Shown: positions 20,353-63,569 of the stretch, piece by piece | How the letters are laid out: every line of letters begins with the position of its first letter | How positions within the stretch are numbered: the stretch's first letter is position 1 | NCBI GenBank assembly: GCA_964646645.1 | Contig: CAZYHJ010000006.1 | Coordinates: 4,717-68,716, forward strand | DNA length: 64,000 bases | Direction of reading: 5' to 3' | From: an uncultured Saprospiraceae bacterium | GTDB taxonomy: Bacteria; Bacteroidota; Bacteroidia; Chitinophagales; Saprospiraceae | The notes under the pieces: generated by a model | Told to the model about the DNA's origin: nothing | The model's input: only the letters and a program-made list of their open reading frames with translations | Databases searched by the model: none | Translations under genes and position numbers: made by a program

Positions 20353-20597
20353 TGTTTAGTTGTTTAATTGTTTAACTGTTGGTTGGTTTATGGGTTTATA
20401 AGATTAGGAGCTTAGAGGCTTAGGGATTGAAGGTTTATAAGTTTATGGGTTTATAGGTTTATGGGTTTATGAGATTAGAAGATTAGTGGCTTAGGGATTT
20501 TTGAGTTTACTATTGGTGAGTTGATCCGAACCTCAAGTTTATAAGTTTATGTTGGATTTCCTGACTCCTTGCCCTATGCTCTATGCCCTATGCTCCC
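20353..20597. repeat. ~200-nt array of octamer words (gtttatgg/gattagaa/gcttaggg) followed by ctatgc heptamers
   Basis: About 25 consecutive 8-nt units in near-constant register at 20353-20552, then ccctatgctctatgccctatgctc ending 2 nt from the pirin stop. Confidence 0.85.
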
Positions 20598-20598
20598 A

Positions 20599-44904: not shown

Positions 44905-45639
44905 ATGGTTGTTCCAGATATCTTTTTCTATATCCTGTTGCCTGCTGTAGCTTTCTTATATGCCTCTGTCGGGCACGGAGGAGCGAGTGGTTATCTCGCC
45001 CTGATGGCTTTGTTTTCGTTTGCACCCGAGGTCATGCGTCCCACTGCTTTGGTGTTGAATGTGTTTGTTTCCCTGATCTCGTTTATTCAGTATTATCGGA
45101 ATGGATATTTCGAATGGCGTTTATTCTGGCCATTTGCATTGGCATCTGTTCCTGCAGCATTTTTGGGCGGACTGATCGTCATGGATGGAGAAATGTATAA
45201 GCGCATCCTGGGTGTGCTTTTGATTTTATCTGTTCTTCGTTTGGTAGGTTTTGGAAAAACTCAAATCAATTCCATTAAGCCTCCGCAATTATTAACAGCA
45301 CTTCTTATCGGTGGTGCTATTGGATTCTTGTCCGGACTCATCGGAATAGGTGGCGGTATCATCCTCAGCCCTGTAATTTTATTGTTGCATTGGGGCGATA
45401 TGAAACGGACCGCAGCGGTTTCTGCACTGTTCATCTTTGTCAATTCGCTCGCCGGGCTGGCGGGATTGTGGACGAAGGGATTTGAGATGACTTCTCAGAT
45501 GGTGTTGATGCTTGGACTGGCGGTGGGTGGTGGATTGCTTGGGGCCTGGCTCGGAGCGGGACGGATGGAGAATAGGCAATTGAAATGGATCCTCGCCGTG
45601 GTGCTTACGATTGCATCGGTGAAGCTTTTGTTGACGTGA
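44905..45639 (+). CDS. TauE/SafE family anion exporter-like membrane protein
   Basis: 244 aa, 7-8 TM, duplicated G-rich motifs (VGHGGASGY; IGIGGGIILSP). Confidence 0.85.
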   Translation: MVVPDIFFYILLPAVAFLYASVGHGGASGYLALMALFSFAPEVMRPTALVLNVFVSLISFIQYYRNGYFEWRLFWPFALASVPAAFLGGLIVMDGEMYKRILGVLLILSVLRLVGFGKTQINSIKPPQLLTALLIGGAIGFLSGLIGIGGGIILSPVILLLHWGDMKRTAAVSALFIFVNSLAGLAGLWTKGFEMTSQMVLMLGLAVGGGLLGAWLGAGRMENRQLKWILAVVLTIASVKLLLT

Positions 45640-45748
45640 GTCGTGAGTCGTGAGTCGTGAGACGTGAGTCGTGAGTAAACTGCCTGATTCCTATCTCCTG
45701 ATTCCTACCTTTTTCCGCCCTTCCGCCCTTTTCCCTTACTTTACATCC
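45634..45748. repeat. heptamer array (cgtgagt)x6 plus ctgattcct and ccgccctt words
   Basis: The first unit contains the tauE stop TGA (45637-45639). 45687-45707 is identical to 4761-4781. Confidence 0.85.
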
Positions 45749-46064: not shown

Positions 46065-46292
46065 ATGAAGAAGCAAATCAAGATCATCGTTGAAAAGCAT
46101 AAAGATGGCTTTGTAGCCTATCCGATTGGATTGAAAGGGGTAGTGGTTGCTCAAGGTAATTCCTACGACCAAGTCCTGACAGAGGTAAAATCAGCAATTG
46201 ATTTTCACATTGAAACCTTCGGCAAAGAAGTCTTTGAAGGAGAGGATATGATCATGGACGTATTTGTTGCCGAAACTCAGGTTGCTATGTGA
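46065..46292 (+). CDS. hicB: HicB-like antitoxin (UPF0150 type, no DNA-binding extension)
   Basis: 75 aa: IIVEKHKDGFVAYPIGLKGVVVAQGNSYDQVLTEVKSAIDFHIE. Confidence 0.8.
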   Translation: MKKQIKIIVEKHKDGFVAYPIGLKGVVVAQGNSYDQVLTEVKSAIDFHIETFGKEVFEGEDMIMDVFVAETQVAM

Positions 46293-46531
46293 TGCCCCGT
46301 TTTCCGCGTGATGCTCCCAAAGAAAAGGTTTTGAATGCCTTGAAAAGATTATCCTTTGTAATAGTAAGGGAGGGAAACCATATTGCCATGCGACGTATAA
46401 ATGCGGATGGCACATCAACGCCTCTTACCCTTCCAAACCATAACAGAATTAATGCCTCCACCCTACGGACCATTTTAAATCAATCTAACATATCCAGACA
46501 AGAGTTTTTGGAGGCATTTTACAATAAGTAA
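46292..46531 (+). CDS. hicA: HicA-like mRNA interferase toxin
   Basis: MPRFPRDAPKEKVLNALKRLSFVIVREGNHIAM...TLRTILNQSNISRQEFLEAF; the ATG overlaps the hicB stop (TGATG). Confidence 0.85.
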   Translation: MPRFPRDAPKEKVLNALKRLSFVIVREGNHIAMRRINADGTSTPLTLPNHNRINASTLRTILNQSNISRQEFLEAFYNK

Positions 46532-47117: not shown

Positions 47118-47558
47118 ATGTCAGATAAAAAACCTAAAAAAGTCTTCATCGATGGCCCGGTCTCCCCGGAGTTTGTGGCCAAATCTATTGCGTCGCACAG
47201 CACTAAGATGGATATCGGCGCCCACAGCATTTTCCTGGGCCAGGTCCGAAATGACCTCATCGGAGAGCAGCGCGTTGAGGCTATCGAGTATACCGCCTAC
47301 ACGGAAATGGCCGAAAAGAAATTTCACGAGATCCGTGAGGATGCTTTCGCTCAATACCCATTGACTTGTCTTCATATTTATCACAGCCTCGGGACAGTAG
47401 CCGCTGGTGAGATCAGCCTTTTTGTTTTTACCTCCGCCGCCCACCGCTCCGAAGCCATCCGCGCCTGCGAATACCTCGTCGAACGCATCAAGCATGAGGT
47501 CCCTGTCTGGGGCCGCGAGATCATGGAGGATGGGAACTCGGTGTGGAAGGAGAATTAA
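47118..47558 (+). CDS. moaE: molybdopterin synthase catalytic subunit MoaE
   Basis: 146 aa: GAHSIFLGQVRND...VEAIEYTAYTEMAEK...GEISLFVFTSAAHRSEA...PVWGRE. Confidence 0.9.
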   Translation: MSDKKPKKVFIDGPVSPEFVAKSIASHSTKMDIGAHSIFLGQVRNDLIGEQRVEAIEYTAYTEMAEKKFHEIREDAFAQYPLTCLHIYHSLGTVAAGEISLFVFTSAAHRSEAIRACEYLVERIKHEVPVWGREIMEDGNSVWKEN

Positions 47559-47562
47559 GGAT

Positions 47563-47876
47563 CGTGAGACGTGAGACGTGAGACGTGAGTCGTCAGACGT
47601 GAGTCGTCAGACGTGAGTCGTGAGTTGCGGTTGGTGAGCTGTAGCACAAGGATGTGTAAAGCGGGTCGAACCATGAATGGTGAGTTGTGAGTAGTGAATC
47701 GTCAGTCGTCAGATATTTGCCTATTGCTTATTGCCCATTGCTTTCTGCCATCGGTCGCCGAAGCGCATTTCCGCGCGAAGGAGACCTTCCAGCTTAGTGG
47801 CTTCGCAGCACTGCGGGATCTCCGCTGCGCTTCGATCTTCCCTGTGCTCTATGCTCTATGCTCTCTGCTCTATGCG
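47563..47876. repeat. composite mosaic element, copy A (reverse orientation relative to B and C)
   Basis: (cgtgaga/cgtgagt/cgtcaga)x9 at 47563-47625; gtgagtt words at 47673-47714; ctattgc words at 47717-47748; core copy at 47785-47835; (ctatgct)n at 47841-47876. Confidence 0.9.
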
Positions 47877-47985
47877 TTTTTAGGCACGGTTTTCCCTATA
47901 TTTGATATCACGAAATCACCCACCCGATGCCCCCTCCACGGTGTGTTGGTTGTTTCGCCATTTGAGCTCAATTCTAAACATATTA

Positions 47986-48816
47986 ATGAATATCAAGAAG
48001 TATAACGGCCTGTATTTCAATGACGGAAAATTTTCCTCAGTGAGGGACACCCTTTCCGTTGAGGTCGGCCTGAGTATTTCAATCAATACCATTCCCTTCA
48101 CGGTCACCATGCAGACGCCCGGACAGGAGAAGGACCTGGTCAGGGGCCTCCTTTTTTCCGAAAGTATCTACCGGGATCTGAACCACCATCCAAAATTGGA
48201 AATGACTGGCATGGATGAGGATGGGTACATCAGCGCCATTAATGTGACGATACTGCAGGAACGCTTGCTAAAGGATTTTGCCGGCACCCGAAATGTAATG
48301 TCTGCCTCATCCTGTGGATTGTGTGGAAAAACAACTTTTGACGAAGCGGATACAGCCAGGATTATAAATGATCATCAAATCGATCCCGGAATCATTGGGG
48401 AGATGTTTGATCAGATGAACGAATTGCAGAATTCGTTTAAAGCATCCGGAGGTACCCACGCCGCTGGTGCATTTACGCTCGAGGGAGAATTGCTCAGCAT
48501 ACGTGAAGACATCGGCCGGCACAATGCCGTAGATAAAGTGATCGGCGACCTGATCCACCAAAACCTCCTTCAACGGGCCGCCTGCCTGACCGTTAGTGGC
48601 CGCATATCATTTGAAATCGTCAGCAAAGCAATTTCGGCCGGCATACCCTATCTTGCCTCAGTATCGGCCCCATCCTCCCTCGCGGTGGATACCGCCGAAC
48701 AAGCAGGCCTGACGCTCATGGCGTTTTGCCGCAATCACAGATTAACCGTTTACTCAAATACCGGGAACGTACGTACCGAATCAACAGAGGCGCTGGCCCC
48801 GGTCAACAAGAAGTAA
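47986..48816 (+). CDS. fdhD: formate dehydrogenase accessory sulfurtransferase FdhD
   Basis: 276 aa from MNIKKYNG; SSCGLCGK active-site loop, GGTHAAG, GRHNAVDKVIG. Confidence 0.9.
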   Translation: MNIKKYNGLYFNDGKFSSVRDTLSVEVGLSISINTIPFTVTMQTPGQEKDLVRGLLFSESIYRDLNHHPKLEMTGMDEDGYISAINVTILQERLLKDFAGTRNVMSASSCGLCGKTTFDEADTARIINDHQIDPGIIGEMFDQMNELQNSFKASGGTHAAGAFTLEGELLSIREDIGRHNAVDKVIGDLIHQNLLQRAACLTVSGRISFEIVSKAISAGIPYLASVSAPSSLAVDTAEQAGLTLMAFCRNHRLTVYSNTGNVRTESTEALAPVNKK

Positions 48817-48817
48817 A

Positions 48818-50470
48818 ATGTCAAAGAATTTAAGTGAACTCTCCGGCCGCAAAGGCCTTGAAAAGAATCTGTTTGAGGAGTTGGGTAAAGCAGCTCAAGC
48901 CACAGGCACACCTGATCTGGATGCGCAGGAACAACTGAGCTATGATTTTCTTGTGGGCAAGGCCAATGTGTATGGCGCTGTTTCTTTCTACGATTTTCTA
49001 CGTCCTGAAAACCAGGGTAAGAAAGTCTATGTCTGCAATGGAAGTGCCTGCATGACCGCCGGAACACAGGATGCACTAAAGGCTACATTATCGACCCATT
49101 TTCAAGCCGATGAAATAGGTGAAATGTGCTGTCTAGGCCGCTGCCACGAAAACAGTTCGTTTCATTATGACGGCCGCAACTACAGCGGAACGGATATCCA
49201 GAACATCAGCAGTATAAAGCAAAACCAAACGACAACCGCCGAACATTACAATGTCGGTCATATCGGTACACCGATTCTTACGGCACCTTACGGTAGCATC
49301 AATGAATACTACAGCATTTTTAAAAAATGCCTTCAACAACCCGCATCACAATTACTTACGGAATTAAAAGATTCAGGAGTGCGTGGTCGTGGTGGAGCCG
49401 GTTTCCCAATGGCCTTTAAACTTGAAGCATGCCGCAATCAGCAGGAGGAAACAAAGTTTATTGTTTGCAATGCTGATGAAGGAGACCCGGGAGCATATTC
49501 CGACAGGTATATCATGGAACAGCGTCCACATGCCCTTCTCATGGGCATGATGATCGCCGGGTACATCGCCGGGGCCAAATATGGAGTGGTCTACATTCGC
49601 GGAGAGTATCCTGAATCCGTAGACATCATCAATGATGCTATTGCGGAACTGCATCAACATCATTTGCTTGGTGAAAACATCGAAGAATCCGGTTTCGATT
49701 TTCAGTTTAAAGTAATCAAAGCACAAGGCGCATACATCTGTGGTGAAGAAACCGCCTTACTCTCTTCCATTGAAGGCCAACGTCCCGAGGTGCGCGTGAG
49801 ACCACCTTATCCGGTACAACAAGGTTTGTTTAATAAACCTACTGTCGTCAACAATGTCGAAACGCTGGCCAACCTGCCATGGATCATGCAGCAAGGTGGT
49901 AAAGCATACGCTTCGTTAGGAACTCCTAAATCAACGGGGACAAAATTGATTTCCCTGGATGGTTTTTTTAACAAGCCAGGTATTTATGAAGTGGATATGG
50001 GCACGCCCCTAAGACAAGTAGTAGATCAACTCGGTGGAGGATTTAAGTCGCCAGTAAAAGCCATGCATATCGGTGGTCCACTTGGAGGACTGGTGCCTGT
50101 AAGCGCCATTGATAAACTTACGGTCGATTTTGATTCATTTGCCCGAGAGGGATTCTTATTAGGACATGCTTCTGTTGTTTGCATTCCTGAAGATTATCCA
50201 TTGGTCCAGTACATCGAACATCTCTTCCGCTTTACGGCACATGAGAGTTGCGGAAAATGTTTCCCTTGCAGATTAGGTTCGACGCGCGGGTATGAATTGC
50301 TGGAAAAAGCACAAAAGGAAAACTATAAGATTGATATCACACTGATGAAGGATCTGCTCGACACCATGGAAGCCGGATCCTTATGCGCATTGGGTGGTGG
50401 ACTACCGCTACCTATTAAGAATGCCATGAAGTATTTTGAAACCGAACTCGCACCCTACTTTAAATCATAA
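48818..50470 (+). CDS. NAD-linked formate dehydrogenase diaphorase subunit (fused NuoE-like + NuoF-like)
   Basis: NuoE-type 2Fe-2S (CNGSAC...CLGRC), FMN/NADH site GRGGAGFP, 4Fe-4S ESCGKCFPCR. Confidence 0.9.
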   Translation: MSKNLSELSGRKGLEKNLFEELGKAAQATGTPDLDAQEQLSYDFLVGKANVYGAVSFYDFLRPENQGKKVYVCNGSACMTAGTQDALKATLSTHFQADEIGEMCCLGRCHENSSFHYDGRNYSGTDIQNISSIKQNQTTTAEHYNVGHIGTPILTAPYGSINEYYSIFKKCLQQPASQLLTELKDSGVRGRGGAGFPMAFKLEACRNQQEETKFIVCNADEGDPGAYSDRYIMEQRPHALLMGMMIAGYIAGAKYGVVYIRGEYPESVDIINDAIAELHQHHLLGENIEESGFDFQFKVIKAQGAYICGEETALLSSIEGQRPEVRVRPPYPVQQGLFNKPTVVNNVETLANLPWIMQQGGKAYASLGTPKSTGTKLISLDGFFNKPGIYEVDMGTPLRQVVDQLGGGFKSPVKAMHIGGPLGGLVPVSAIDKLTVDFDSFAREGFLLGHASVVCIPEDYPLVQYIEHLFRFTAHESCGKCFPCRLGSTRGYELLEKAQKENYKIDITLMKDLLDTMEAGSLCALGGGLPLPIKNAMKYFETELAPYFKS

Positions 50471-50475
50471 AGGTT

Positions 50476-53220
50476 ATGTCACAGACAGCCTATATCAACG
50501 ATATTGAATATCCCATCCTGCCAGGTGATACCATTTTAAAGTTGGTTCGCCGTCACCTGGGCCAGGATCATGTGCCGACATTGTGCGATGCGCCTAACCT
50601 TGATCCCTTTGGTTCATGCAGGGTATGCAGCGTGGATGTCGCCCTCGTCAAGAACGGACCCGCAAAGGCACAGGCTTCATGCCATACACCGGTCATGGCC
50701 AACTCTTACATCTATACGGACAGTGAGCGTATCACTAAACTTAGGAAGAATATCATTGAGTTGGTGTTGACAGATCACCCATTGGATTGTTTGACTTGCG
50801 AAGTGAATAACAACTGTGAGTTACAAACCGTAGCGGCAAGAGTCGGCATTAGAAAAGTACGATATCCGGAAGGTAAGAACCATCTGGATAAGGAAAAGGA
50901 TCTGAGTCATCCGTACATGACATCTGATTTTTCAAAGTGTATCAATTGCTTCAGGTGTGTGCGAGCCTGTGATGAAGTGCAGGGGCAGTTGGTGCTGAGT
51001 ATGGCTGGTCGTGGCTTTGATAGTCATATCATCAAGGGATTTGAACAAAACTTCTTTGAGTCGGATTGTGTGAGTTGCGGCGCTTGTGCGCAGGCGTGCC
51101 CAACTTCAGCGATCTCAGATGTGTTTGAATCAAAATCTGTGGCTGTTGATGAGAAGATCAGGACCGTATGCACCTATTGTGGTGTGGGATGCAACCTCGA
51201 AGTAGCGGTAGTCAATAAAAAAGTAAAGTCCATCCAGGCGCCTTATGATGCGGAAGTCAATACGGGTCATACTTGCCTCAAAGGCAGATTTGCGTTTTCA
51301 TTTTACAACCATCCCGATCGCCTGCGTACTCCGCTGATCCGTAAGGATGGAGAATTGGTCCCTGCGACATGGGAAGAGGCGTATAATTATATCGCGGATA
51401 AGCTGACCTTCATTAAGAACGAACATGGCCCGGATGCCATTGCAGGTATTTCATCTGCCCGTTGTACCAATGAAGAGAATTACCTGATGCAGAAATTCAT
51501 TCGCGCGGTCATCGGTACAAACAATATCGATAGTTGCGCCCGCGTCTGCCATTCGCCAACGGCATTGGGTATGCAGCGCACCTTTGGTACCGGGGCGGCT
51601 ACGAATTCGATCATCGATCTCAAATACACGGATTGCATCATGGTCATCGGTGCCAATCCTACCGATGCGCATCCGGTGACCGGCGCTAAGCTGAAACAGT
51701 TTGCGATGAGTGGAAAGACCACGATTGTGATCGATCCTCGTCGAACTGAAATGGCTCGTTATGCCACGTACCATTTACAACTGCGGCCGGGTACTAATGT
51801 AGCCGTCATGAATATGCTGTTGTATTGGATCATTACGGATGGCCTGGAGGATAAGAACTTTATAGATTCCAGGACTGAGGGATACGAAGAGTTTAAGAAG
51901 CATATCCTCAGCCTGGATGTGAGTGAACTGGAGAAAATCAGTGGGGTGAATAAGGATTTGGCGAGAAAGGCGGCAAGGGCCTATGCTACTGCGCCCAATG
52001 CAATGTCATTCCATGGACTCGGTGTGACAGAACATTCACAGGGCACGTACACGGTGATGCTCATTGCGGACCTGGCAATGATCACCGGGAATATTGGTCG
52101 CCGTGGTGTGGGTGTGAATCCGTTACGCGGACAGAATAATGTGCAAGGAGCTGCTGACATGGGATGTCAGCCGCATCAGGGCGCGGGCTACCTGGATGTG
52201 ACGCAACCTGAAGTGCATAAAATGTATGAGGATTTTTATCACGCCAAATTGCCATTGCACATCGGATATAAGATACCACAGATGTATGATGCCGCTTTGG
52301 CTGGAAAACTAAAAGCGTTGTGGCTGATGGGCGAGGATAATGTGCAGACGGATCCGAATACACAGCATGTGGTGAGTGCGATGGAGAAACTTGACCTTTT
52401 AGTGGTGCAGGAAATCTTTATGACGGAGACCGCAAAATTAGCGCACGTGGTATTGCCTGCCTCTTCATTTTTAGAAAAAAGTGGAACATTTACGAATGGG
52501 GAGCGGAGAATACAAAGAGTACAAGCCGTTGTGGAGCCGCTTGAAGGCACCAAACCAGATGGACAGATCATCGTTGATATCATGAATCGTATGGGGTATG
52601 CTCAACCCGATTATGATCCGGCATTGATGTTGGAGGAGATTTCGCAGATCGTGCCTTTCTTCGCTGGTGTGAAGTGGGATGAGTTGGGTGAGAATGGCAA
52701 GCAATGGCCTGTTAAACCAGATGGTACAGACACGGAGATCCTGCACATTGATAGTTTCAAACGCGGTAAAGGAAAATTCCAGGTGGCCACGTGGCGTGAA
52801 TCAGAGGAGATTCTCAATCATGGCCAGGAGTTCCCGTATATCCTTACCACAAACCGCGAGCTTGAGCATTACAACTGCGGCACCATGACACGCCGCACGG
52901 GTAACGTTGAAATTCTTACGGATGATGTTTTACTGATTCACCCGGAAGATGCCGCCAAACATTTCATAGAAGAAGGTGATTTCGTTTGCATCATCAGCGC
53001 CCGTGGCAAGATCGATGTCAAGGCTAAGATCACTGATGAAGTACGGCCTGGGGTGCTATCTTCCACCTTCCATTTTCCTGAAGTGCGCATGAACGATCTG
53101 ACCTCATCTGTAAGTGACAGCGAAGCCATGTGCCCTGAATATAAAGTGGTGGCTGTAAATATTCGTAAGAGCAAGGGCGTGCATAAAGCAAAAGCGAATG
53201 GCGCTACTGCGAAAGCATAG
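50476..53220 (+). CDS. formate dehydrogenase alpha subunit (molybdopterin, Cys-type, NuoG-like N-terminus)
   Basis: 2Fe-2S CDAPN..GSCRVC; HPLDCLTCEVNNNC; CINCFRCVRAC; CVSCGACAQAC; MopB CTYCGVGC. Active site ARVCHSPT with a Cys codon at 51547-51549. Confidence 0.95.
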   Translation: MSQTAYINDIEYPILPGDTILKLVRRHLGQDHVPTLCDAPNLDPFGSCRVCSVDVALVKNGPAKAQASCHTPVMANSYIYTDSERITKLRKNIIELVLTDHPLDCLTCEVNNNCELQTVAARVGIRKVRYPEGKNHLDKEKDLSHPYMTSDFSKCINCFRCVRACDEVQGQLVLSMAGRGFDSHIIKGFEQNFFESDCVSCGACAQACPTSAISDVFESKSVAVDEKIRTVCTYCGVGCNLEVAVVNKKVKSIQAPYDAEVNTGHTCLKGRFAFSFYNHPDRLRTPLIRKDGELVPATWEEAYNYIADKLTFIKNEHGPDAIAGISSARCTNEENYLMQKFIRAVIGTNNIDSCARVCHSPTALGMQRTFGTGAATNSIIDLKYTDCIMVIGANPTDAHPVTGAKLKQFAMSGKTTIVIDPRRTEMARYATYHLQLRPGTNVAVMNMLLYWIITDGLEDKNFIDSRTEGYEEFKKHILSLDVSELEKISGVNKDLARKAARAYATAPNAMSFHGLGVTEHSQGTYTVMLIADLAMITGNIGRRGVGVNPLRGQNNVQGAADMGCQPHQGAGYLDVTQPEVHKMYEDFYHAKLPLHIGYKIPQMYDAALAGKLKALWLMGEDNVQTDPNTQHVVSAMEKLDLLVVQEIFMTETAKLAHVVLPASSFLEKSGTFTNGERRIQRVQAVVEPLEGTKPDGQIIVDIMNRMGYAQPDYDPALMLEEISQIVPFFAGVKWDELGENGKQWPVKPDGTDTEILHIDSFKRGKGKFQVATWRESEEILNHGQEFPYILTTNRELEHYNCGTMTRRTGNVEILTDDVLLIHPEDAAKHFIEEGDFVCIISARGKIDVKAKITDEVRPGVLSSTFHFPEVRMNDLTSSVSDSEAMCPEYKVVAVNIRKSKGVHKAKANGATAKA

Positions 53221-53469
53221 AGCATAGAGCAGAGGGCATAGAGCAAGGGGCAAATAGATTTTGGGAATTAAATTCTTGAAAATTCGCGTGAATTCGCGGC
53301 TGTAACCAAATAGGCAATTCGAAGCGCAGCGAAGATCCCGCAGTGCTGCGAAGCCACTAAGCGGGAAGGCAATAGGCAATAAGCAATAGGCAATAAGCAA
53401 TGGGCAATTCATTGTGTACTACTCACTGCTCACCACTCACCATTCACAACTGACGACTGACGACTCACG
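53214..53469. repeat. composite mosaic element, copy B
   Basis: (gcataga)n at 53214-53250 includes the fdhA stop TAG; 60-nt core at 53314-53373; (gcaataa/gcaatag)n at 53368-53410; (actcac/gactgac)n at 53421-53469. Confidence 0.9.
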
Positions 53470-53505
53470 TTATACAGATCACAGATCACTGCACACCGAT
53501 ATTCC

Positions 53506-54420
53506 ATGGTAGACATCACCAATAAAATCATCACCCACAGAGTTGCTATTGCCGAAGCCACCGTACATGTCAGCGCTCAGGAGACGATAGATGCCATCCA
53601 GCAGAAAACAGTTCCGAAAGGAGATGTCTTTGAGGCAAGCCGTGTGGCCGGACTGTTCGGGATCAAACGGACCAGTGATATGATCCCGGATTGTCATCCC
53701 TTGCCGGTGGAATTTGCGGCCGTGAGATTCAGGATCGAAGGATTGGATATTTTTATTGAGACAGAGGTGCATACCCTTTATAAGACTGGCGTGGAAGTAG
53801 AGGCCATGCATGGCGCATCAGTCGCGGCACTTACGGTGTATGATATGTTGAAACCGATCGATAAAGGGATTGAGATCCGTAACATACGACTCGTGAAAAA
53901 GAAGGGAGGAAAAGGGCAGTATACGGATCTGCCTAAACGCGAACTCAAAGTTGCTGTCATCGTTTGTTCGGATAGTATATCTGCAGGCAAGAAACAGGAT
54001 TTCGCGGGAAAGGAAATCATCAGCCACTTGGAGAAATGGGGTGTACAGACGCATGACTATACTATCATTCCTGATGAATTGGCTGTCATTCAAGGCAGAG
54101 TTCAGGAGTTGTATAATCAGCAATATGATATGATCTTATTGACAGGCGGGACCGGACTTTCACCAAGAGATGTGACCCCCGAAGCTATTCGCCCTATGCT
54201 GGACCGGGAGATTCCTGGTGTTGCAGAAGCAGCCAGACAATATGGTCAGCAGCATATGCCTTATAGTATGCTGTCCCGCAGCCTCGCCGGACTCAAGGGC
54301 AAGACGCTCATCATGGCCCTCCCCGGCTCTACCCGCGGCGCAGCCGAGAGTATGGATGCTTTGTTCCCTTATATCCTCCACATTTTCCGTGTATCAGATG
54401 GTATGCCCCACGGAGAATAG
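53506..54420 (+). CDS. bifunctional MoaC (cyclic pyranopterin monophosphate synthase) / MoaB-Mog-like protein
   Basis: N-terminal MoaC (TSDMIPDCHPLP, KTGVEVEAMHGASVAALTVYDM). C-terminal MoCF domain (VAVIVCSDS, LLTGGTGLSPRDVTPEA). Confidence 0.9.
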   Translation: MVDITNKIITHRVAIAEATVHVSAQETIDAIQQKTVPKGDVFEASRVAGLFGIKRTSDMIPDCHPLPVEFAAVRFRIEGLDIFIETEVHTLYKTGVEVEAMHGASVAALTVYDMLKPIDKGIEIRNIRLVKKKGGKGQYTDLPKRELKVAVIVCSDSISAGKKQDFAGKEIISHLEKWGVQTHDYTIIPDELAVIQGRVQELYNQQYDMILLTGGTGLSPRDVTPEAIRPMLDREIPGVAEAARQYGQQHMPYSMLSRSLAGLKGKTLIMALPGSTRGAAESMDALFPYILHIFRVSDGMPHGE

Positions 54421-54595
54421 CCTAAGACCCATTCAGCCGATTTTCTTCTTTTTCAAAAAAACTCTTGATTTCTTAAGCCTTTGATTCTCAATTATCTGAT
54501 TGAGGTAAATCAATTTTTGGTCAAAATATTATTACAAAATGTAAAATAAACTATACAAAAAGTAAAATATGCTTTATGTTTGAGGCGTTAAAAGG

Positions 54596-54904
54596 GAAAC
54601 AGGAAACAGGCAATAGGCAATTTGCAATTCGAAGCGCAGCGAAGATCCCGCAGTGCTGCGAAGCCACTAAGCGGGAAGGCAATGAGCAATAAGCAATAAG
54701 CAATAAGCAATGGGCAATAAGCAATGAGCAATAAGCAATGAGCAATAAGCTATGTAAAGCAAACCACAGGCTATGAAATAATAACTCTACTAGAAGTCCC
54801 CTTTAGGGGATTTAGGGGCCGAGGATGCAATGCAATAAGCAAATTTCTCACGACTGACGACTCACGAATCCCCACTCACAACTGACAATTCACCACTCAC
54901 AATT
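54596..54904. repeat. composite mosaic element, copy C
   Basis: gggaaacagg words; 60-nt core at 54624-54683, identical to copy B; (gcaataa/gcaatga)x~9 at 54679-54750; gaagtcccctttaggggatttaggggcc at 54793-54820; (ctcacga/ctgacga/actcaca)n at 54847-54904. Confidence 0.9.
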
Positions 54905-54933
54905 AATCAATTCCCATCAAAAATTATCAAACA

Positions 54934-55431
54934 ATGAACCACAAACTTCTCTTACCCAATCGCTTCAAGATGATCGGTTGGATTTTCCTCATTCCCGCAA
55001 CAATAGCTGGGATTATACTCATGTCAATGGATTATGAGACTGAATGGCTTAACACAAAGGTTTTTGCCATCATAAACGATCAGTTTTTATTTTCCAATAG
55101 CGTTACATTTCCCAATAGAAAATTTTTCACAGTGATCACCGCTAACATTACCAATTCCCTGGTAGCGTTTTTATTTATTCTGGGAGCCATGATGGTGGCA
55201 TTTGCGAAGGAGAAGACTGAAGATGAGTACATCGCAAAACTGAGACTATCATCGCTGCTTTGGTCCGTATGGGTCAATTATATTTTTTTGTTACTGGCTT
55301 TGGCTTTTGTTTGGGGCTTCTCCTTTTTTAATGTCATGGTCTACAACATGTTTACTATCCTGATCATCTTTATCATCCGATTCAATTACCTGCTGTACAG
55401 AAGCACAAATGCGATGGCCGATGAAAAATAA
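54934..55431 (+). CDS. membrane protein (4-5 TM), unknown function
   Basis: 165-aa hydrophobic ORF overlapping the start of the following HTH gene. Confidence 0.5.
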   Translation: MNHKLLLPNRFKMIGWIFLIPATIAGIILMSMDYETEWLNTKVFAIINDQFLFSNSVTFPNRKFFTVITANITNSLVAFLFILGAMMVAFAKEKTEDEYIAKLRLSSLLWSVWVNYIFLLLALAFVWGFSFFNVMVYNMFTILIIFIIRFNYLLYRSTNAMADEK

Positions 55432-56592: not shown

Positions 56593-57429
56593 TCATTCAT
56601 TAGGAGGCGATGAAAGCCGAGATTCGTCATAATGCGTGATCTGACGTGGGTAAGGCAGGCGAATATCTTTTTCCTTCAGCGCCTTAAAGATGGCCACCCG
56701 AATTTCACTCTTTATATTCTCTACCCGAAATACCTCCGAGCACCAAAACATAATCGTGATCTCGACGGAGGATTCACCGAATTTTGTAATGCGAATGGAA
56801 GGTTCGGGCGATCTGCTAACTGACTTGTGCTGTAACGTCACTTCTTTAAACAGCGTCATCACCGCAGGAATCTCCTCTGTATAGGGAAGTAATACCTGGA
56901 TTTCAAATCGGGATGTCTGATGACTATAGGTCCAGTTGACCACTTTCCCTTCCGTAATCACAGAATTGGGAAGGATAATATATTTATCCTCCCGCGTCAT
57001 GACCGCTGTAGTGCGCAGTTTAATCTCCTTCACCCTGCACACGATGCCATCTACTTCGATGACATCATTGACCTTGATGGTGCCGTCAAATAAAATAATG
57101 ATGCCGGATATAAAATCTTTGAAGAGGTGTTGTAGTCCAAATCCAATACCTACCAACAACGCCGCTGACCCTACAAAAATGACAGAAAGATCAATCCCCA
57201 GCGCAGTGACACCCGAAAGAACAGCCACAACGATCAAGGTGTATTTGGCCAGTTGCCGTATAGAGTATTTGGCGCCCTCGTCAATTTTCTTGTGCCGAAC
57301 GATTGCCCTGCTCAGCGTCATCAGGATGATCTTTGCGGCCAGGATGATCGCTACGACAACAAGTAGGTTGTGCACATACAAGGAGTAGTCTCCTATTTGG
57401 AAAATGCGATAGTCCAGAAATGATTTCAT
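56593..57429 (-). CDS. mechanosensitive ion channel (MscS family)
   Basis: 3 TM plus GIGFGLQHLFKDFISGIIILFDG pore helix and a beta-domain. Confidence 0.85.
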   Translation of the reverse strand: MKSFLDYRIFQIGDYSLYVHNLLVVVAIILAAKIILMTLSRAIVRHKKIDEGAKYSIRQLAKYTLIVVAVLSGVTALGIDLSVIFVGSAALLVGIGFGLQHLFKDFISGIIILFDGTIKVNDVIEVDGIVCRVKEIKLRTTAVMTREDKYIILPNSVITEGKVVNWTYSHQTSRFEIQVLLPYTEEIPAVMTLFKEVTLQHKSVSRSPEPSIRITKFGESSVEITIMFWCSEVFRVENIKSEIRVAIFKALKEKDIRLPYPRQITHYDESRLSSPPNE

Positions 57430-57444
57430 AGCCAGAATCTCATT

Positions 57445-57891
57445 TTACATTTTAAGGCTCCCTTTTTCGAAAGGGCGTTGTTCATCCAGATCCGCCGCCT
57501 GTAGAAGGAAAGTGAGCACAAGTGCGTCATCGATTTCTTCGGGCGAATGAAAGTCTCTCCAATATACTTGTTTACGATGTTCTTTAACCAAAAAGACTTC
57601 AGGATCATCCAATAGATATCCTTTTGTAAAACCAAGCCGAACTCCATTTTGTTTGACACTGCCCCATGCAATACTTACGGGCCATATAAAGCAGATATTA
57701 TTATGCCTTTTGTAAAAAGGCACATTGTAAGCAAGTTTCTCTTTAGCATCCGGAATGGCCTGGAGGACCACTTCACGAAGGTTCTCTACCAATTTTAATT
57801 CATCGCCCGGCAATGCTTCAAGGAATTCCTCCACGGAGGCAAAGGAGACATCCTGCATTTTGCGTTTGGGTTGTAATGGCTGCATGTTCAT
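57445..57891 (-). CDS. DUF1801 (YdhG-like) domain protein
   Basis: SVEEFLEALPGDE...LREVVLQAIPDAKEKLAYNVPFYK pattern; the ATG overlaps the upstream stop (ATGA). Confidence 0.7.
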   Translation of the reverse strand: MNMQPLQPKRKMQDVSFASVEEFLEALPGDELKLVENLREVVLQAIPDAKEKLAYNVPFYKRHNNICFIWPVSIAWGSVKQNGVRLGFTKGYLLDDPEVFLVKEHRKQVYWRDFHSPEEIDDALVLTFLLQAADLDEQRPFEKGSLKM

Positions 57892-59507
57892 TCTTCACTC
57901 ACGGTAAAAAACTCCCGAACTTTTTCCTGGTAAGAATATACATCCTTCGGCCTTAATTTTATCATGGCCGCCAGGCACTGCCTTTGTGCCGCAGCATTGA
58001 CATTCATCGCTTCAGCCCACATCGCTACCTCAGTGAGCATACGGTCCTCATGCTTACTTTGAGGATATGATAATCCCATGCTGGCCAAAAATTTTTCACG
58101 ACACTGATTTTCGGCTTTCTCCCGGTGACCATTGTATTTCTTTTGGATCATATGGGTCGCCCCTGCGGTGATGGCCGGAACACTGATCTGTTTATGCGTG
58201 CCTAAATTCAATGCAACGGAATCTGTAGCCAATTTTCGCAAAATTCGGGGAGGAGTTCTATAGCCTGGTTTTGCTTTGATTTTATCTGCCTCCTGTTTGG
58301 ATAATTGAAACAATGTCCTGTCCACAGGCCTGAACCCAAAACGATAATAAAACCAGAATGCGCCGGAAGCAATGCCTTCCGGGTTGTCATATCCAAACTG
58401 ATAAGGTTCAACTTCAACGTAGTTCAACCGGAAGACCTGAATGAACACCCGTAAAAGCTGAGCCATGACAAAGGAGGATTCCCCTTTCCTGAATGCAGGG
58501 AAAATATTGATCCCAAAATTGGCCCTTCCGCCGAATACCCATGAACCACCATAGGCCACAGGTATTCCATTCTTGAAGGCTGTGTATCCCACATAAGATT
58601 CCAGGGCCAACTGCCTCTCAGGAATCATCGTGTAGATTGCCACAGACACGCCCCGATCGAGGTGAAACAACCGAAGGGAATTTTCATCCATGTACGTTGT
58701 CGGATCTGTCTCCCTGACCATCAGGATCATGGCATTCTTGATGACCATGATCATATGTTCTTTTGCTGCCGCAGAAGGAGAATCGTGCAAAGGCAAGGGT
58801 TCGTTCAGTATGACCTGCGGATCTATCCGCCTGACCAGTTCCTGGTGAGTGTAGATGTTGTCCGCCGGCAATACATTATAGGCTTTGGACCACTTCGCCT
58901 GATTGGATTCTAATTTAACATAAACACCGAGTGCATCGTAGAAGTGATCTTTAATGAATGGTTCAGGATCTAAGCGCCCTAGCTCATGGATGATAAATTT
59001 TAACCTGTCGGATGTTGGTACTTTGAGGGTTTCCAGCAAGGAGATATTATCCAGTCCGGCGGTGGTCTCACTTCGCTCAAGTGCAGGCAGGGTTAGTTTC
59101 AGCACATCATTGAGATCAAGGGTGGCGTTGGCGAAGGTATCCAGCGTGATTTTGCAGCCATTTTGTTGCAGCAACCACCGAACGGCATCATGTGTAAACC
59201 GACTATAGACCGGCGTGAACGGTAATCCTGTGTTGTTTAGGGCCTCTCGCCAGGACTTCGGTTGTCGTTTAATAAAGGCAGATAAACGATTCAGGCAAAT
59301 CCGGGCGTTCCTCCGTTCTTTTTGATCGGAAGGGTAGGCTAGTATAAAAAGGAGAGCATCATGTATGGGGCCAATATGTTGTTTGGGGAACGATGAGCGC
59401 TTAGCCAGTGCCCGAAGACTTTCTTTTCTGGTGGTTATAGAGGCCTCATCCATCTGGCCTAAACTTTCTGAAAGGAGTGCAACCTGTTTTGAAAAAGACT
59501 GGCTCAT
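57888..59507 (-). CDS. hypothetical protein, 539 aa, with a GNAT-like segment
   Basis: No family recognised. Residues ~300-400 (YVGYTAFKNGIPVAYGG...GIASGAFWFYYRFGFRPV) resemble an acyl-CoA N-acyltransferase core. Confidence 0.5.
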   Translation of the reverse strand: MSQSFSKQVALLSESLGQMDEASITTRKESLRALAKRSSFPKQHIGPIHDALLFILAYPSDQKERRNARICLNRLSAFIKRQPKSWREALNNTGLPFTPVYSRFTHDAVRWLLQQNGCKITLDTFANATLDLNDVLKLTLPALERSETTAGLDNISLLETLKVPTSDRLKFIIHELGRLDPEPFIKDHFYDALGVYVKLESNQAKWSKAYNVLPADNIYTHQELVRRIDPQVILNEPLPLHDSPSAAAKEHMIMVIKNAMILMVRETDPTTYMDENSLRLFHLDRGVSVAIYTMIPERQLALESYVGYTAFKNGIPVAYGGSWVFGGRANFGINIFPAFRKGESSFVMAQLLRVFIQVFRLNYVEVEPYQFGYDNPEGIASGAFWFYYRFGFRPVDRTLFQLSKQEADKIKAKPGYRTPPRILRKLATDSVALNLGTHKQISVPAITAGATHMIQKKYNGHREKAENQCREKFLASMGLSYPQSKHEDRMLTEVAMWAEAMNVNAAAQRQCLAAMIKLRPKDVYSYQEKVREFFTVSEE

Positions 59508-59627
59508 GACAAGTCATGTAGGTGATACGGGAAAGATAAGATTTTCCCATCGGAGCCTGTTGCGAAAAGAACGTGATCCGGCTTTAATGCTTTTGGCGCA
59601 CTTAAACCTTGGTCAAAACGGGAAGGA

Positions 59628-60089
59628 TCAGTAAATGTCCTGAATGTGGTAAGTCATCCCGTTGAAAGAGAAGGAATCCCCTTTTTTAAGCCCTTTCATA
59701 TGCCCGTAAAGCGGTGCTTTTTCCGACATCCCAAAAATTTTAGCCACTTCCAAATCCAGTTCCTCACTGGACACTGCAATAAAGAACGTGCGTTTATCGG
59801 TGACCACCACAGCGCCTCTTTCCACCACTGTTGCCGGATTTTCAGGATCAATAGACCGAAGGATCTCCATTTCTGCCTTGACAAAACGGAGTTCCTGTCC
59901 CATCACTTCGAGCATTTCTTCCGGAGCGCTGGCTCCTTCATCCGTCTGGCTTGGTGTTTCACTGTGACTGTAGGCATCAGCTTTAACTTCCTCAATTCGC
60001 TGGTCAAAATGCTGGATCAATTCTTCCTGCCTGGCGATGCAGGCTTCCAGGATAACGGCTTTGGAAATTCGTGTGCTCATATGGATCAT
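59628..60089 (-). CDS. GreA/GreB C-terminal-domain-like protein (putative)
   Basis: Coiled-coil N-terminus plus C-terminal VERGAVVVTDKRTFFIAVSS...LKKGDSFSFNG, resembling the Gre FKBP-like domain. Confidence 0.45.
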   Translation of the reverse strand: MIHMSTRISKAVILEACIARQEELIQHFDQRIEEVKADAYSHSETPSQTDEGASAPEEMLEVMGQELRFVKAEMEILRSIDPENPATVVERGAVVVTDKRTFFIAVSSEELDLEVAKIFGMSEKAPLYGHMKGLKKGDSFSFNGMTYHIQDIY

Positions 60090-60314
60090 AATTAGACCTC
60101 AAAGATAGCTTTCCGGCCCCAATATTGGCATCTCAAACCATGTCTTCAGCGTCATTTGGAATGGATATTCCCCGCCACGAGGCATTCATCCACCTAAAAC
60201 GGGCATTCGGTACCCTTTTATTTGACCACAGGGTGGACCTCCCAATACTTTTGAGCCATCAAACGAATCAATAACTCAATCACACTATTCCTAACAACTT
60301 AAAAAATTTAAACC

Positions 60315-60755
60315 ATGAAAGCGTTTCTTTTTAAAAACCACTTTTTCGCCTTTGCCCTTATGTCCATCGCCGCATTATCTTTTGTCGCCTGCGACAATAA
60401 GGACGAAGAAACACCGGAACCATCACTGGAAGTCTCCCTGGTAGGGACCTGGGATATCAACTCCTACCAACTGGATGATGATGAGTGGATGGGCCTGATC
60501 GCCGAATCAGCATTCATCACCTTTGAAGAACCCGTTGACAGCTCAGGGATATTCATCCAGGAAGTCACCTTTGCGGATGGAGAGACGGTTTCGCTTTCCA
60601 GCAGGTATATCATCAGTGAAATTCCCGGCCAGATTATTATGTATTACGAAGGCGAACCTATCGTAGTGGATATCGACATTACGGGGAATAAAATGCTTTG
60701 GGAAAGCATTCAGCAGCAGTACCCGCTGGTCATCAAGGCTACAAAACGTCAGTAA
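60315..60755 (+). CDS. putative lipoprotein (lipocalin-like size)
   Basis: Signal plus lipobox SFVAC; LVGTWDINSY motif. Confidence 0.5.
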   Translation: MKAFLFKNHFFAFALMSIAALSFVACDNKDEETPEPSLEVSLVGTWDINSYQLDDDEWMGLIAESAFITFEEPVDSSGIFIQEVTFADGETVSLSSRYIISEIPGQIIMYYEGEPIVVDIDITGNKMLWESIQQQYPLVIKATKRQ

Positions 60756-60765
60756 AACCAACTAT

Positions 60766-60798
60766 GGTTGCGGAAGGAAACTTCCGCAACCCCTTTTA
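60766..60798 (+). terminator. rho-independent terminator
   Basis: ggttgcggaag-gaaa-cttccgcaacc 11-bp stem with a GNRA-type loop, then ccttttag. Confidence 0.8.
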
Positions 60799-60879
60799 GA
60801 AAGCTATACTCCTTTAACTTTGTTCCGATAGATGATAGAGAAGGTACTTGATCCTCTGGCCTCTTTCTACTAAACTTTG

Positions 60880-62772
60880 ATGATGAAAGGAATTCTGATC
60901 CTGATTTTTATTTGCAGTTTCACAGTGCTGAGGTTGCCTGCTCAGATGAACAGGGACAGCTTGTGGACCGAATGGAGCAATGCCGCAGCTTCCGACTCTA
61001 ACCGGTTGAACGCAATACAACGACTCGCCTGGCCAATGCTCAATGTCAATCTGGATTCAGTTTTATTACTGGCCAACATGCAACTAAAGTTTGCGAGGGA
61101 GCGGGACCAGCAATTATGGGCAGGGAAGGCGCTCTATACGATAGCCACTGCATATTACTATAAGGGGGATTACGTGAGTTCCCTTAACTATTACCAACAG
61201 AGTCTGGACATCCGGAAAGCGATTGGGGATTTGAAAGGTGAAGCCGCCATATATGGAAATTTTGGATTGATCTATAGCGCCAAGGGTGACAATGTCAAGA
61301 ATCTGGAGTACCAGTTAAAGTCGCTGGCCATCAATGAGAAAATCAATGACACTTCCGGATTGACAAGTAATTACAGCAATATCGCGATCATCTATCAGGA
61401 ACAAGAGGATACGCTTAAGGCACTGGAATACTATAACCGATCCATTAAGATCTATGAGGCGAAAAGGGATGAACAGGGGCTTGGATTGCTGTACAATAAC
61501 ATCGGCACGATGTACAAGGATTTTAAAATGTGGGATAAATCCTTGTATTATCTGAATAAGAGCCTGGAGATCCGGACACGACTTAATGATCGTATGGGTA
61601 TGGCGATTACTTACGTCAACCTGGGTACGGTCTACAATAAAATGGGAGAATATGAACAGGCTAAAACCTATACGCTCCTGAGTACAAAGAGTTTTGAAGC
61701 CCTCCGGGACTCCGGTAGCCTGACGAATACTTATTATACACTGGGTGAAATCGCTCTGAATCAGATGGATTTTAAAGGGGCGAAAGAATGGTGTGACAAA
61801 TCATTGGTCATCGCGAGAGCCACAGATAAAGTCCCGGTCCAACGTGCGGCGTGCAATTGCCTGTTCAGGGCTTATAAGGCCACCGGTGATGCTGAAAAGG
61901 CGCTCGGGTATTTTGAGGAATTTTATATGCTCGATGACAGTCTGAATAAACTCAACGTAGCCGTCGAGCTGAAGCGTATTGAATTTGAACGGGACCTGCT
62001 TTTGGATAGCCTGAGCCGTGAAGATGAGAAACGACAGATCAACCTGGCCCATCAGGCAGAACTGACAAAAAAGAACAACTATATCCGATTGATGCTGCTT
62101 CTGGGGATAGGTATTTTGTTGCTGGCCCTGATCTTTTTATTCCGGATGTTACGCTATCAGCGCAATTCACAGCAATTTAAATTGAAATCTGAGCAGCTTG
62201 AAAAGCAACAATTAGTCAGTGAGATTGCATTGCTGAAGACCCAGGTCAATCCACACTTCTTATTTAATAGTCTCAGCATTCTCTCTTCCCTGGTGCGTGT
62301 GGACCCGGATTTATCTGAAAAATTTATCGATCAGTTGTCCCGGTCATACCGGTATATTCTTGAGCAGAAAGATCAGCCGTTGGTGACCCTCCGTACTGAA
62401 CTCACCTTTATTGAGTCTTATACTTTCCTGCTGCGGATTCGGTTTGAGAACAAATTCAACGTTCATATTGATTTGCCTGAACAGATCCTGGATAAATATA
62501 AAATTCCACCCCTCACCTTGCAGTTGCTGATCGAAAATGCGGTGAAGCATAATCGGATGTCCGTTTCGGAGCCATTGGATTTGACCGTGACCGTAGAAGA
62601 GGATAAGATGTTAGTGATCAAAAACAATTTACAGCCGCGCAGCACACCATCGATGTCCACTGGCGTGGGGCTGCAGAATATAATGAACCGGTATGCGCTA
62701 TTAACCAAGTATCCGGTTTGGGCCGGTGAAGCGGGTGATCAGTTTGTCGTCCGGATTCCATTACTCACCTAA
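60880..62772 (+). CDS. TPR-repeat sensor histidine kinase, LytS/YehU (His_kinase) type
   Basis: Signal, ~8 TPR units, one TM (LMLLLGIGILLLALIFLF), then NPHFLFNSL H-box and an HATPase-like end. Confidence 0.85.
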   Translation: MMKGILILIFICSFTVLRLPAQMNRDSLWTEWSNAAASDSNRLNAIQRLAWPMLNVNLDSVLLLANMQLKFARERDQQLWAGKALYTIATAYYYKGDYVSSLNYYQQSLDIRKAIGDLKGEAAIYGNFGLIYSAKGDNVKNLEYQLKSLAINEKINDTSGLTSNYSNIAIIYQEQEDTLKALEYYNRSIKIYEAKRDEQGLGLLYNNIGTMYKDFKMWDKSLYYLNKSLEIRTRLNDRMGMAITYVNLGTVYNKMGEYEQAKTYTLLSTKSFEALRDSGSLTNTYYTLGEIALNQMDFKGAKEWCDKSLVIARATDKVPVQRAACNCLFRAYKATGDAEKALGYFEEFYMLDDSLNKLNVAVELKRIEFERDLLLDSLSREDEKRQINLAHQAELTKKNNYIRLMLLLGIGILLLALIFLFRMLRYQRNSQQFKLKSEQLEKQQLVSEIALLKTQVNPHFLFNSLSILSSLVRVDPDLSEKFIDQLSRSYRYILEQKDQPLVTLRTELTFIESYTFLLRIRFENKFNVHIDLPEQILDKYKIPPLTLQLLIENAVKHNRMSVSEPLDLTVTVEEDKMLVIKNNLQPRSTPSMSTGVGLQNIMNRYALLTKYPVWAGEAGDQFVVRIPLLT

Positions 62773-62813
62773 ACGGTCAATTGGGACCATTCACACTCAA
62801 AGAAATTCATGCC

Positions 62814-63569
62814 ATGAAAACCATAATCATAGAAGATGAAAATCTCACCGCAAAGCGCCTGGAAGGGTTGCTGAAAAAGTATGATTCTTCCATAGAAATT
62901 GAAGCGGTCATTCCTTCTGTCCGGGAGGCTGTCAAATGGTTGACGGACCATCCGGAGCCTGAGCTCATCTTTATGGATATCCATCTTGAGGACGACCTCG
63001 CGTTTAAGATCTTTGAACAATTGCGTATTTCGGCGCCGGTCATTTTTACTACCGCTTACGATGAGTATATGATCCAGGCGTTTAAGGTCAATAGCATCGA
63101 CTACCTGCTAAAGCCAGTCAATTATGATGAATTGGTGCAGGCCATTGAAAAATTTAAACGGCTGAAGGATCAGTTTGCTCAACCCAACCTGAACACCTTA
63201 TTAAAATCGCTTGGGCATAAGGAGCCGGATTATAAGAGTCGGTTTATGATCACGGTGGGTACGCGGATCAGGAGTATTGAGACATCAGAGATTGCTTATT
63301 TCTATTCCGAAGAAAAACTCACGTTTATGGTCACCAAAGAGGGCCAGAATCTTCCCATCGATTTTAGCCTGGATAAATTGACGACACTCCTGAATCCAAA
63401 AGATTTCTTCCGCATCAGCCGCCAATTCCTGGTCAGTTTCCAGTGTATTCAGACCGTGCATGCCCATATCAAAGGAAAGTTGAAACTTGAACTGAAACCA
63501 AAGACCAATCTGGAAGTGATGGTCAGCGGAGACAGGATGACGGACTTTAAGGAATGGCTGGGTAGGTAG
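62814..63569 (+). CDS. LytR/AlgR (LytTR) family response regulator
   Basis: REC (KTIIIEDE, ELIFMDIHLED, KPV) plus a LytTR domain (FFRISRQFLVS). First ATG is at 62814. Confidence 0.9.
   Translation: MKTIIIEDENLTAKRLEGLLKKYDSSIEIEAVIPSVREAVKWLTDHPEPELIFMDIHLEDDLAFKIFEQLRISAPVIFTTAYDEYMIQAFKVNSIDYLLKPVNYDELVQAIEKFKRLKDQFAQPNLNTLLKSLGHKEPDYKSRFMITVGTRIRSIETSEIAYFYSEEKLTFMVTKEGQNLPIDFSLDKLTTLLNPKDFFRISRQFLVSFQCIQTVHAHIKGKLKLELKPKTNLEVMVSGDRMTDFKEWLGR

Follow-up and report, generated by a model that had tools for sequence, protein, structure and literature searches.

Three copies of one short sequence stand within 7 kb in the spacers of a formate dehydrogenase/Moco gene cluster, and the question they raise is whether this sequence serves the regulation of these genes or is kept there on its own account. 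In the window, by which we mean the whole 64-kb stretch of Saprospiraceae DNA analysed here, a 60-mer occurs at 53314-53373 and again at 54624-54683 with 0 mismatches (exact search; 0 matches in 100 shuffles), in agreement with the 60/60 identity that had been reported for the two sites, and the third, reverse copy at 47785-47835 is confirmed as complementary to the core at 49 of 51 positions (96%). The chance expectation for copies of the 60-mer in the window is zero. The original prediction, made from the letters alone, took the core for a possible small RNA or protein-binding site.

The repeat is real, but according to the alignment of all copies its unit is 48 nt and not 60 nt, the predicted core owing its outermost 5 and 7 bases (GCAAT... 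and ...AGGCAAT) to flanking heptamers. The unit is made of a 17-nt 5' arm followed by a 31-nt hairpin, with the consensus TCGNAGCGCAGCGNAGA TCCCGC AGTG CTGCGAAGC CACT AA GCGGGA, in which the arm is TCGNAGCGCAGCGNAGA and the hairpin has a basal stem of 6 bp and an upper stem of 4 bp, separated on the 3' side by a bulge of 2 nt and capped by a loop of 9 nt. Its left boundary is TCG, preceded by T, A or G, and its right boundary is GCGGGA, followed by A or G.

Read on the plus strand, the cluster comprises MoaA, MoeA, TauE, MoaD(ThiS), a HicA pair, a 181-aa protein and MoaE, then copy C, FdhD, a NuoF-like subunit and FdhA, then copy A and the MoaC/MoaB fusion, and finally copy B and a small membrane protein. 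Copy A (53319-53366, plus strand; 5' arm 53319-53335, hairpin 53336-53366) lies 99 nt past the FdhA stop and 140 nt ahead of the MoaC/MoaB start, and copy B (54629-54676, plus strand; arm 54629-54645, hairpin 54646-54676) in the spacer from MoaC/MoaB to the gene of the 153/165-aa membrane protein; each scores 79 bits with the covariance model. The inverted copy C (47788-47835, minus strand; arm 47835-47819, hairpin 47818-47788; 74.4 bits) is placed between MoaE and FdhD and carries a G>T change in the 3' basal stem (GCTGGA), by which one pair is lost. No further copy was found in the window by nhmmer or by the covariance model built from 13 copies (64 kb, filters off). All three copies within 7 kb, with none elsewhere in an unbiased 64 kb, fit local duplication better than frequent transposition.

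The immediate surroundings of the three copies are also alike. Copy A has an AGCATAG heptamer array on its 5' side (53214-53252, plus strand), an array type which, in element orientation, is met 5' of copy C too, then a single AGGCAAT unit directly 5' (53312-53318) and a GGCAATA/AGCAATA array directly 3' (53367-53408, plus strand). Copy B is directly preceded by GGAAACA and GGCAATA units (54595-54628, plus strand) and directly followed by a GCAATAA/GCAATGA array (54677-54754, plus strand). Copy C, read on the minus strand, has a GCATAGA array 5' (47845-47875) and a GCAATAA/GGCAATA array 3' (47717-47749), the latter set off from the element by an arm-like piece. In element orientation the three spacers thus follow a common order, (GCATAGA)n - core - (GCAATAA/GGCAATA)n - (CTCACGA/CTGACGA)n. 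The arm-like piece, CCGAAGCGCAtttccgcgCGAAGGAGA, adjoins copy C on the opposite strand (47758-47784, plus strand, with a weak plus-strand covariance-model match at 47758-47818), so that the copy C hairpin is framed by an inverted repeat of 9 nt, CGAAGCGCA/TGCGCTTCG, in a symmetric REPIN-like form. As this hairpin has arms on both strands, a long symmetric structure can form there; the predicted fold of 47750-47845 has -38 kcal/mol and z -1.3.

Gene callers had put ORFs over copies of the element, and for this reason we used translations of the core in its reading frames as queries against protein databases. In the window itself, for instance, an ORF of 38 aa is called over copy B (54576-54692, plus strand) and one of 103 aa over copy C (47694-48005, plus strand). 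A concatenated six-frame peptide query led to P0121, a 110-aa "protein" that is nothing else than three core frames joined by heptamer-encoded peptide. Its locus, L012, lies on a separate 295-kb contig of the JGI metagenome 3300061720, the same metagenome that holds L001, a contig closely matching the window, and contains four copies on one strand, 95-98% identical to the window copies, with start-to-start spacings of 76, 97 and 76 nt, that is 48 nt plus 4, 7 and 4 heptamers. The genes on its two sides, a Por_Secre_tail gene and a giant Ig-like gene coding for more than 4,000 aa, are divergent, and the copies stand upstream of a start, not after a stop. An exhaustive HMMER search with P0121 returned P0123 and P0124. 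The former leads to a third contig of the same metagenome (L013), where two copies sit inside a GCATAGA array in the spacer between an SLT/LysM gene and ThrRS, the latter to three ENA assemblies (L014, L015, L016) with one copy between MacB and OEP. Two weaker matches added L018, with a different upper stem, and L017, with a diverged arm; a profile of one core frame mostly returned heptamer-encoded peptides.

The family therefore comprises multiple copies scattered among unrelated loci in several genomes: the window and two contigs of metagenome 3300061720 together carry nine copies, and diverged copies were found in three other metagenomes beside unrelated genes. All 13 copies are intergenic, and the loci bearing them have about 43-47% GC and a tetranucleotide usage close to that of the window. 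Copies of one locus resemble each other more than copies from other loci do: position 14, for instance, is T in all four L012 copies, and C7>G is private to two of them. The four L012 copies, like the two of L013, are direct repeats. The possibility raised against the original prediction, that the core would be found only here, is thus answered by its recurrence at unrelated loci with compensatory changes.

Searches of other kinds returned chance matches at most. An exact scan of genome and metagenome contigs with the 20-mer ATCCCGCAGTGCTGCGAAGC gave only three, in unrelated high-GC DNA; this negative says little, because most of the 20-mer falls in the upper stem and loop, which are variable, and because the collections did not return the source-like contig either. 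An arm-plus-stem pattern had 0 matches in viral contigs, and blastn against plasmids and phages gave chance matches only. As a side result, the database "hypothetical proteins" P0121, P0123, P0124 and P0125 are translations of repeats, in which motifs such as SRLVASQHCGIFAALR and PIAYCLLPIAYC occur, and thus an annotation artefact.

What, then, is conserved in the element? In the 13-copy alignment 97.5% of the cells of the 10-pair hairpin are paired and four of its pairs have changed on both sides; of 500 shuffles not one attains the value of the alignment on any of five measures, slid controls all stay at about 40% paired, and RNAalifold independently recovers the same hairpin. The base TCCCGC/GCGGGA is almost invariant, and the upper stem is variable and covarying. 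At L014 AGTG/CACT is replaced by the compensatory TATG/CATA, and at L018 the whole upper part is replaced by a 7-bp CAAATGC/GCATTTG stem with a 3-nt loop, the length remaining exactly 48 nt. Disruptive changes number one each in three copies (copy C, the fourth of L012 and the first of L013). Apart from positions 4 and 14, the 17-nt arm matches the basal stem in conservation, position 14 (the N of GNAG, 1 nt 5' of the stem) being its most variable one with T in 5 copies, A in 4 and G in 3, L017 being unalignable there.

Single-sequence stabilities are unremarkable, with z values from -0.6 to -3.1 for individual copies and from -1.3 to +0.4 for the 60-mer and wider contexts, so the structural case rests on covariation, by which the hairpin is shown to be under selection. 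The covariation analysis that the original prediction had called for thus came out in favour of a structure, though only for one of the inverted repeats it had named: TCCCGC...GCGGGA forms the base of the covarying hairpin, whereas changes in CGCAGC...GCTGCG are only disruptive, and a pseudoknot-like pair of helices including the latter was dropped. We also dropped an origin of the element from degenerate heptamers, since no consistent 7-nt register runs through the unit.

An operator or small RNA dedicated to the formate dehydrogenase/Moco genes was the idea of the original prediction, and three copies within 7 kb, all in the spacers of one cluster, do make it tempting. That placement in Moco/FDH spacers holds; what does not hold is a tie of the element to the cluster, as other copies stand at unrelated genes (at least five unrelated loci), and dispersal of this kind contradicts a dedicated regulator. 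Nor is the element conserved at equivalent sites in relatives. The nearest named ones by MoaC/MoaB are Saprospiraceae MAGs with 82-87% amino-acid identity, and at the orthologous Moco/FDH loci of seven relatives (L007-L011, L019, L020) the covariance model finds no copy; their spacers hold other, species-specific short repeats. One of the three window copies is inverted, and neither the Moco riboswitch RF01055 nor any other relevant Rfam family matches at the gathering threshold in the window or at E<=10 within 47400-55000. To judge from these comparisons the element is not tied to any role specific to formate dehydrogenase or Moco, and we regard a dedicated regulator as very improbable.

The same spacers and their neighbours hold other small sequences of interest. 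A dispersed motif, CTCCGTG(n)CTCC..(n)CTCCGTGCGAAA, recurs in related Saprospiraceae at L008 9935-9964, L009 9875-9904 (also in L010 and L011), L019 103-145 and L014 4341-4370 (minus strand). It always precedes the start of a gene by 35-100 nt and points the same way as that gene, which is MoaC/MoaB in three species and OEP in L014; with a strict pattern it is not found in the window, and it may be a promoter-proximal or leader element. The relatives L007, L008, L019 and L020 have arrays of other, species-specific units. The HicAB-like pair of the window (a 75-aa ORF and a HicA-family ORF, 46065-46531, between moaD (ThiS) and the 181-aa/MoaE genes) is missing from L008; at L009 the 75-aa ORF is called and the HicA-family ORF is not.

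The perfect identity of copies A and B had been proposed as a sign of either recent duplication or selection. The contig L001 (JGI metagenome 3300061720, Ga0498930_0000508) is 99.35% identical to the window, and the MoaC/MoaB protein is also encoded on two short Logan contigs (L002, L003). Over its first 13.7 kb L001 differs from the window at five positions, two of which fall inside copy A (window 53332 A>G and 53355 C>T), and L002, which comes from another sample, has both variants as well. Copy B is unchanged over the whole core in L001 and over its first 30 nt in L002, where that contig ends. The two bases of the window make copy A equal to copy B, 1.3 kb away. By our own estimate the chance that two of five differences fall in copy A is about 1e-4, and their clustering in a 48-nt repeat, matching the neighbour, points to a short gene-conversion tract. 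A sister strain with two substitutions in copy A also means that the identity is no sign of purifying selection, so the proposal of selection from perfect identity fails; what the identity points to is recent gene conversion, or else collapse of the repeat by the assembler.

It could be asked at this point whether the element as such is an assembly artefact or a chance similarity among low-complexity spacers. The 60/60 identity might indeed come from short-read repeat collapse, other assemblies showing the 2 differences, but JGI, Logan and ENA assemblies, made independently, all contain the element, zero chance matches are expected and its hairpin covaries. For the element itself this explanation is refuted, with doubt left only for the exact identity of the two copies, and among all readings we consider it the least probable. 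Two further features of these assemblies deserve mention. The Logan unitigs L002 and L003 (MoaC/MoaB gene) end inside or directly beside the element and its arrays, L002 starting at base 1 of copy A and ending in copy B. In the alignment of the window with L001 (20,058 aligned bases), about 125 of the 130 blastn mismatches lie in the last ~6.3 kb (window 57262-63563 against L001 13757-20058), which spans the DUF1801 gene, the gene of a 539-aa protein and onwards, and looks like a strain-variable or recombined segment.

A nearly constant companion of the element is the heptamer array. An RRGCAWW-type unit (AGGCAAT, GGGCATA or GAGCATA) adjoins 11 of the 12 distinct copies, the exception being L017, the most diverged, and such units stand on both sides of all of these but copy C, where other sequence adjoins on the right. 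After the hairpin comes RGGCAAT or GGCATAG. When the 48 nt are taken out of a GCAAT-type array, the array is left unbroken; at GCATA-type loci there is one extra G, a unit upstream. The inter-copy stretches of L012, 28 or 49 nt long, consist of GCAATNN heptamers only, which is why a CRISPR array was rejected, its "spacers" not being unique sequence. The L012 spacings fit equally well with the element having entered arrays that were already there, whether or not 7 bp were duplicated, and with unequal crossing-over, and the private variants shared among L012 copies indicate that unequal crossing-over within arrays does occur.

Tandem heptamer and some octamer arrays fill many other spacers of the window, with units GCATAGA/GCAGAGA, GCAATAA/GGCAATA, CTCACGA/CTGACGA and GTTTATR (2310-2524, 4727-4783, 13947-14143, 20346-20612, 45619-45730, 47562-47749, 47845-47875, 53214-53252, 53367-53489, 54595-54628, 54677-54754 and 54847-54904). 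A second mini-element, GAAGTCCCCTTTAGGGGATTTAGGGGCC, is intact at 54793-54822, downstream of copy B, and recurs near 14007-14067 with a 24-nt GC-rich piece, cgtcgtgctgagcggagtcgaagt, between its parts CCCCTTCAGG and AGGATTTAGGGGCC; related CCCCTTnAGGGG elements are seen at L009 9966-9990 and 10900-10997. The arrangement of this mini-element suggests a nested insertion of small repeats.

From the association with arrays it would be reasonable to imagine a mobile element that targets them, integrating site-specifically at RRGCAWW units with duplication of the 7-bp unit, while a putative trans-acting enzyme reads arm and hairpin on single-stranded DNA. Such an element would account for the two flanking units being identical (7/7) at copy A, at the first and third copies of L012 and at the first of L013, and nearly so (6/7) at two further copies, in both array types (GCAAT and GCATA), as well as for the strict 48-nt length despite sequence turnover in the upper stem. 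The layout, too, is like that of IS200/IS605 element ends, which combine an arm with a hairpin. Yet identical flanks are expected in a tandem array anyway, so a 7-bp target duplication and plain array continuity are inseparable; matching flanks are missing at copy C and L017, private variants common to copies of one array speak for tandem duplication and not for repeated insertion, and the base before the element may be T, A or G, leaving no fixed cleavage tetranucleotide. The DNA inspected held no candidate enzyme: no transposase, RAYT or HUH gene was seen among the window ORFs of at least 130 aa (nearly all of them) and the called genes of L012-L014, ~190 kb together, and no empty site was found, a look-up for presence/absence variants ahead of the 153-aa gene returning only the contig already known. 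We hold targeted integration for unlikely, although clearly less so than a dedicated regulator.

The main rival concerns RNA. Transcribed within polycistronic mRNA or in a 5'/3' untranslated region, the hairpin may protect the message from exonucleases or mark a site of processing, much as has been proposed for the stem-loops of REPs, and its dispersal would then be secondary. At five of six loci (copy A, copy B, L012, L013, L014) the element is co-oriented with the flanking genes, copy C, the inverted one, also has its arm-like piece on the gene strand, and the window copies lie inside operon spacers of the Moco/FDH cluster. On the element strand the hairpin contains four G-U wobbles and zero A-C mismatches, which suggests that this strand is probably the folding one, although G-T wobbles are tolerated in DNA hairpins too. 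An RNA role leaves the conserved single-stranded 5' arm unexplained, the same spacers in relatives do without the element, and the L012 copies stand between divergent genes, ahead of a start instead of past a stop. No copy coincides with a promoter or terminator consensus or has a U-tract or T-run terminator, and none qualifies as an intrinsic terminator. The discrete small RNA gene of the original prediction in particular finds no Rfam match and no promoter or terminator consensus, and the folding energy of the 60-mer is no different from that of its shuffles. We see an RNA role of the hairpin as a possibility of the second rank, slightly ahead of targeted integration, and as one compatible with a dispersed repeat, as with REPs. 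A protein-binding or RNA role, if there is any, is possible on a genome-wide scale, as for REP elements, and would not be specific to the cluster; any cellular effect would likewise be generic, for example that of an RNA or DNA hairpin in long spacers.

Taking all this together, we propose, with a probability of roughly 60%, that the element is a dispersed hairpin repeat of REP-like or SDR-like character, whose hairpin and probably arm are kept for its own propagation or recognition, which is shaped by local recombination and conversion, and which has no function specific to FDH or Moco. Within a locus such a repeat would multiply by unequal recombination or by slippage in the arrays, with gene conversion in addition; the three window copies would go back to local duplication, once inverted, of a module (GCATAGA)n - element - (GCAATAA)n - (CTCACGA)n. 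To new loci it may spread by ectopic recombination between arrays or with the help of a trans-acting protein that would recognise the arm and the hairpin in single-stranded DNA, in the way REPs are recognised by HUH transposases of the RAYT/IS200 type. Against the proposed dispersed repeat one may hold the modest z values of single copies and the lack of a visible mover gene or empty site, and the co-orientation and G-U wobbles would suit a function at the RNA level as well.

Saprospiraceae abound in wastewater and in aquatic systems, yet hardly any have been cultured. Our best reading is that we deal with a small hairpin repeat family of this group, previously undescribed in Rfam and in the literature searched, where nothing pertinent was found on such a family or on heptamer repeats in Saprospiraceae/Bacteroidetes. 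The family is now defined by a covariance model and 13 copies, and a tempting regulatory reading of the formate dehydrogenase/Moco cluster is removed. There are practical consequences too: the element and its arrays break short-read assemblies of this organism, seed spurious ORFs in public protein databases, and copies can be homogenised between neighbouring spacers. The strict 48-nt arm-plus-hairpin unit, nearly always beside heptamers, offers a tangible way into the question of how repeats of this small size spread.

Among known systems, the Moco riboswitch RF01055 shares with the element only the neighbourhood, ahead of moaC/moaB and beside formate dehydrogenase genes, and differs in that the element is a 48-nt single hairpin, inverted in one copy and present at unrelated loci. 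With MITEs it has in common being small, non-coding, multi-copy and intergenic, and its flanking direct repeats could be a target-site duplication, though the identical 7-nt units at 4 copies lie within tandem heptamer arrays where such identity is expected. Unlike MITEs, which are typically longer than 48 nt, it lacks terminal inverted repeats: TCGAAGCG at the 5' end stands against TCCCGCTT when the 3' end is reverse-complemented, and the ends TCGAAGCG... and ...AAGCGGGA are not complementary.

The likeness to REP elements goes further. Both are short extragenic imperfect palindromes present in repeated form (20-40 nt for REPs, a covarying hairpin of 31 nt in a 48-nt unit here), and, as with REPs and BIMEs, the hairpin can form in single-stranded DNA or mRNA and is met in operon spacers, as singlets and in tandem clusters. 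A short conserved sequence stands 5' of the hairpin foot in both, and the L012 copies and the second of L013 even read GTAG-A-hairpin, although the GTAG/CGTC tag of REPs is not conserved in the element, where position 14 is A, G or T. REPs usually flank a RAYT gene (Y1/HUH, IS200-like), for which ~190 kb here gave no counterpart, and number tens to hundreds per genome, nine copies of the element having been seen on the three contigs; the element differs further by its embedding in heptamer arrays and by its host, a member of the Bacteroidota (Saprospiraceae). REPINs are two inverted REPs forming a long hairpin, while clusters of the element are mostly direct, copy C alone, with its partial inverted arm, approaching them.

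In lifestyle the nearest analogy is offered by cyanobacteria. The small dispersed repeats SDR4-6 are said to have been described together with STRR heptamer repeats by Elhai and colleagues in 2008, and SDRs reportedly are intergenic hairpin units of 21-27 nt, suspected of inserting into other short repeats. The window arrays resemble the STRR repeats of heterocystous cyanobacteria, and a Coleofasciculus (cyanobacterial) ORF, P0128, is encoded by GCAATNG-type heptamers as in these arrays. The Nostoc system shares with ours non-coding intergenic hairpin repeats below 100 nt in a genome rich in heptamer arrays, and in both the sequence varies and the hairpin is kept; the differences are in length (48 nt against 21-27 nt, SDRs being about half as long), in phylum and in sequence. 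If insertion targeted to arrays should prove true after all, we might even suggest that the element is a Bacteroidota counterpart of the STRR/SDR system of heterocystous cyanobacteria, and that the origin or maintenance of the heptamer arrays is tied to it.
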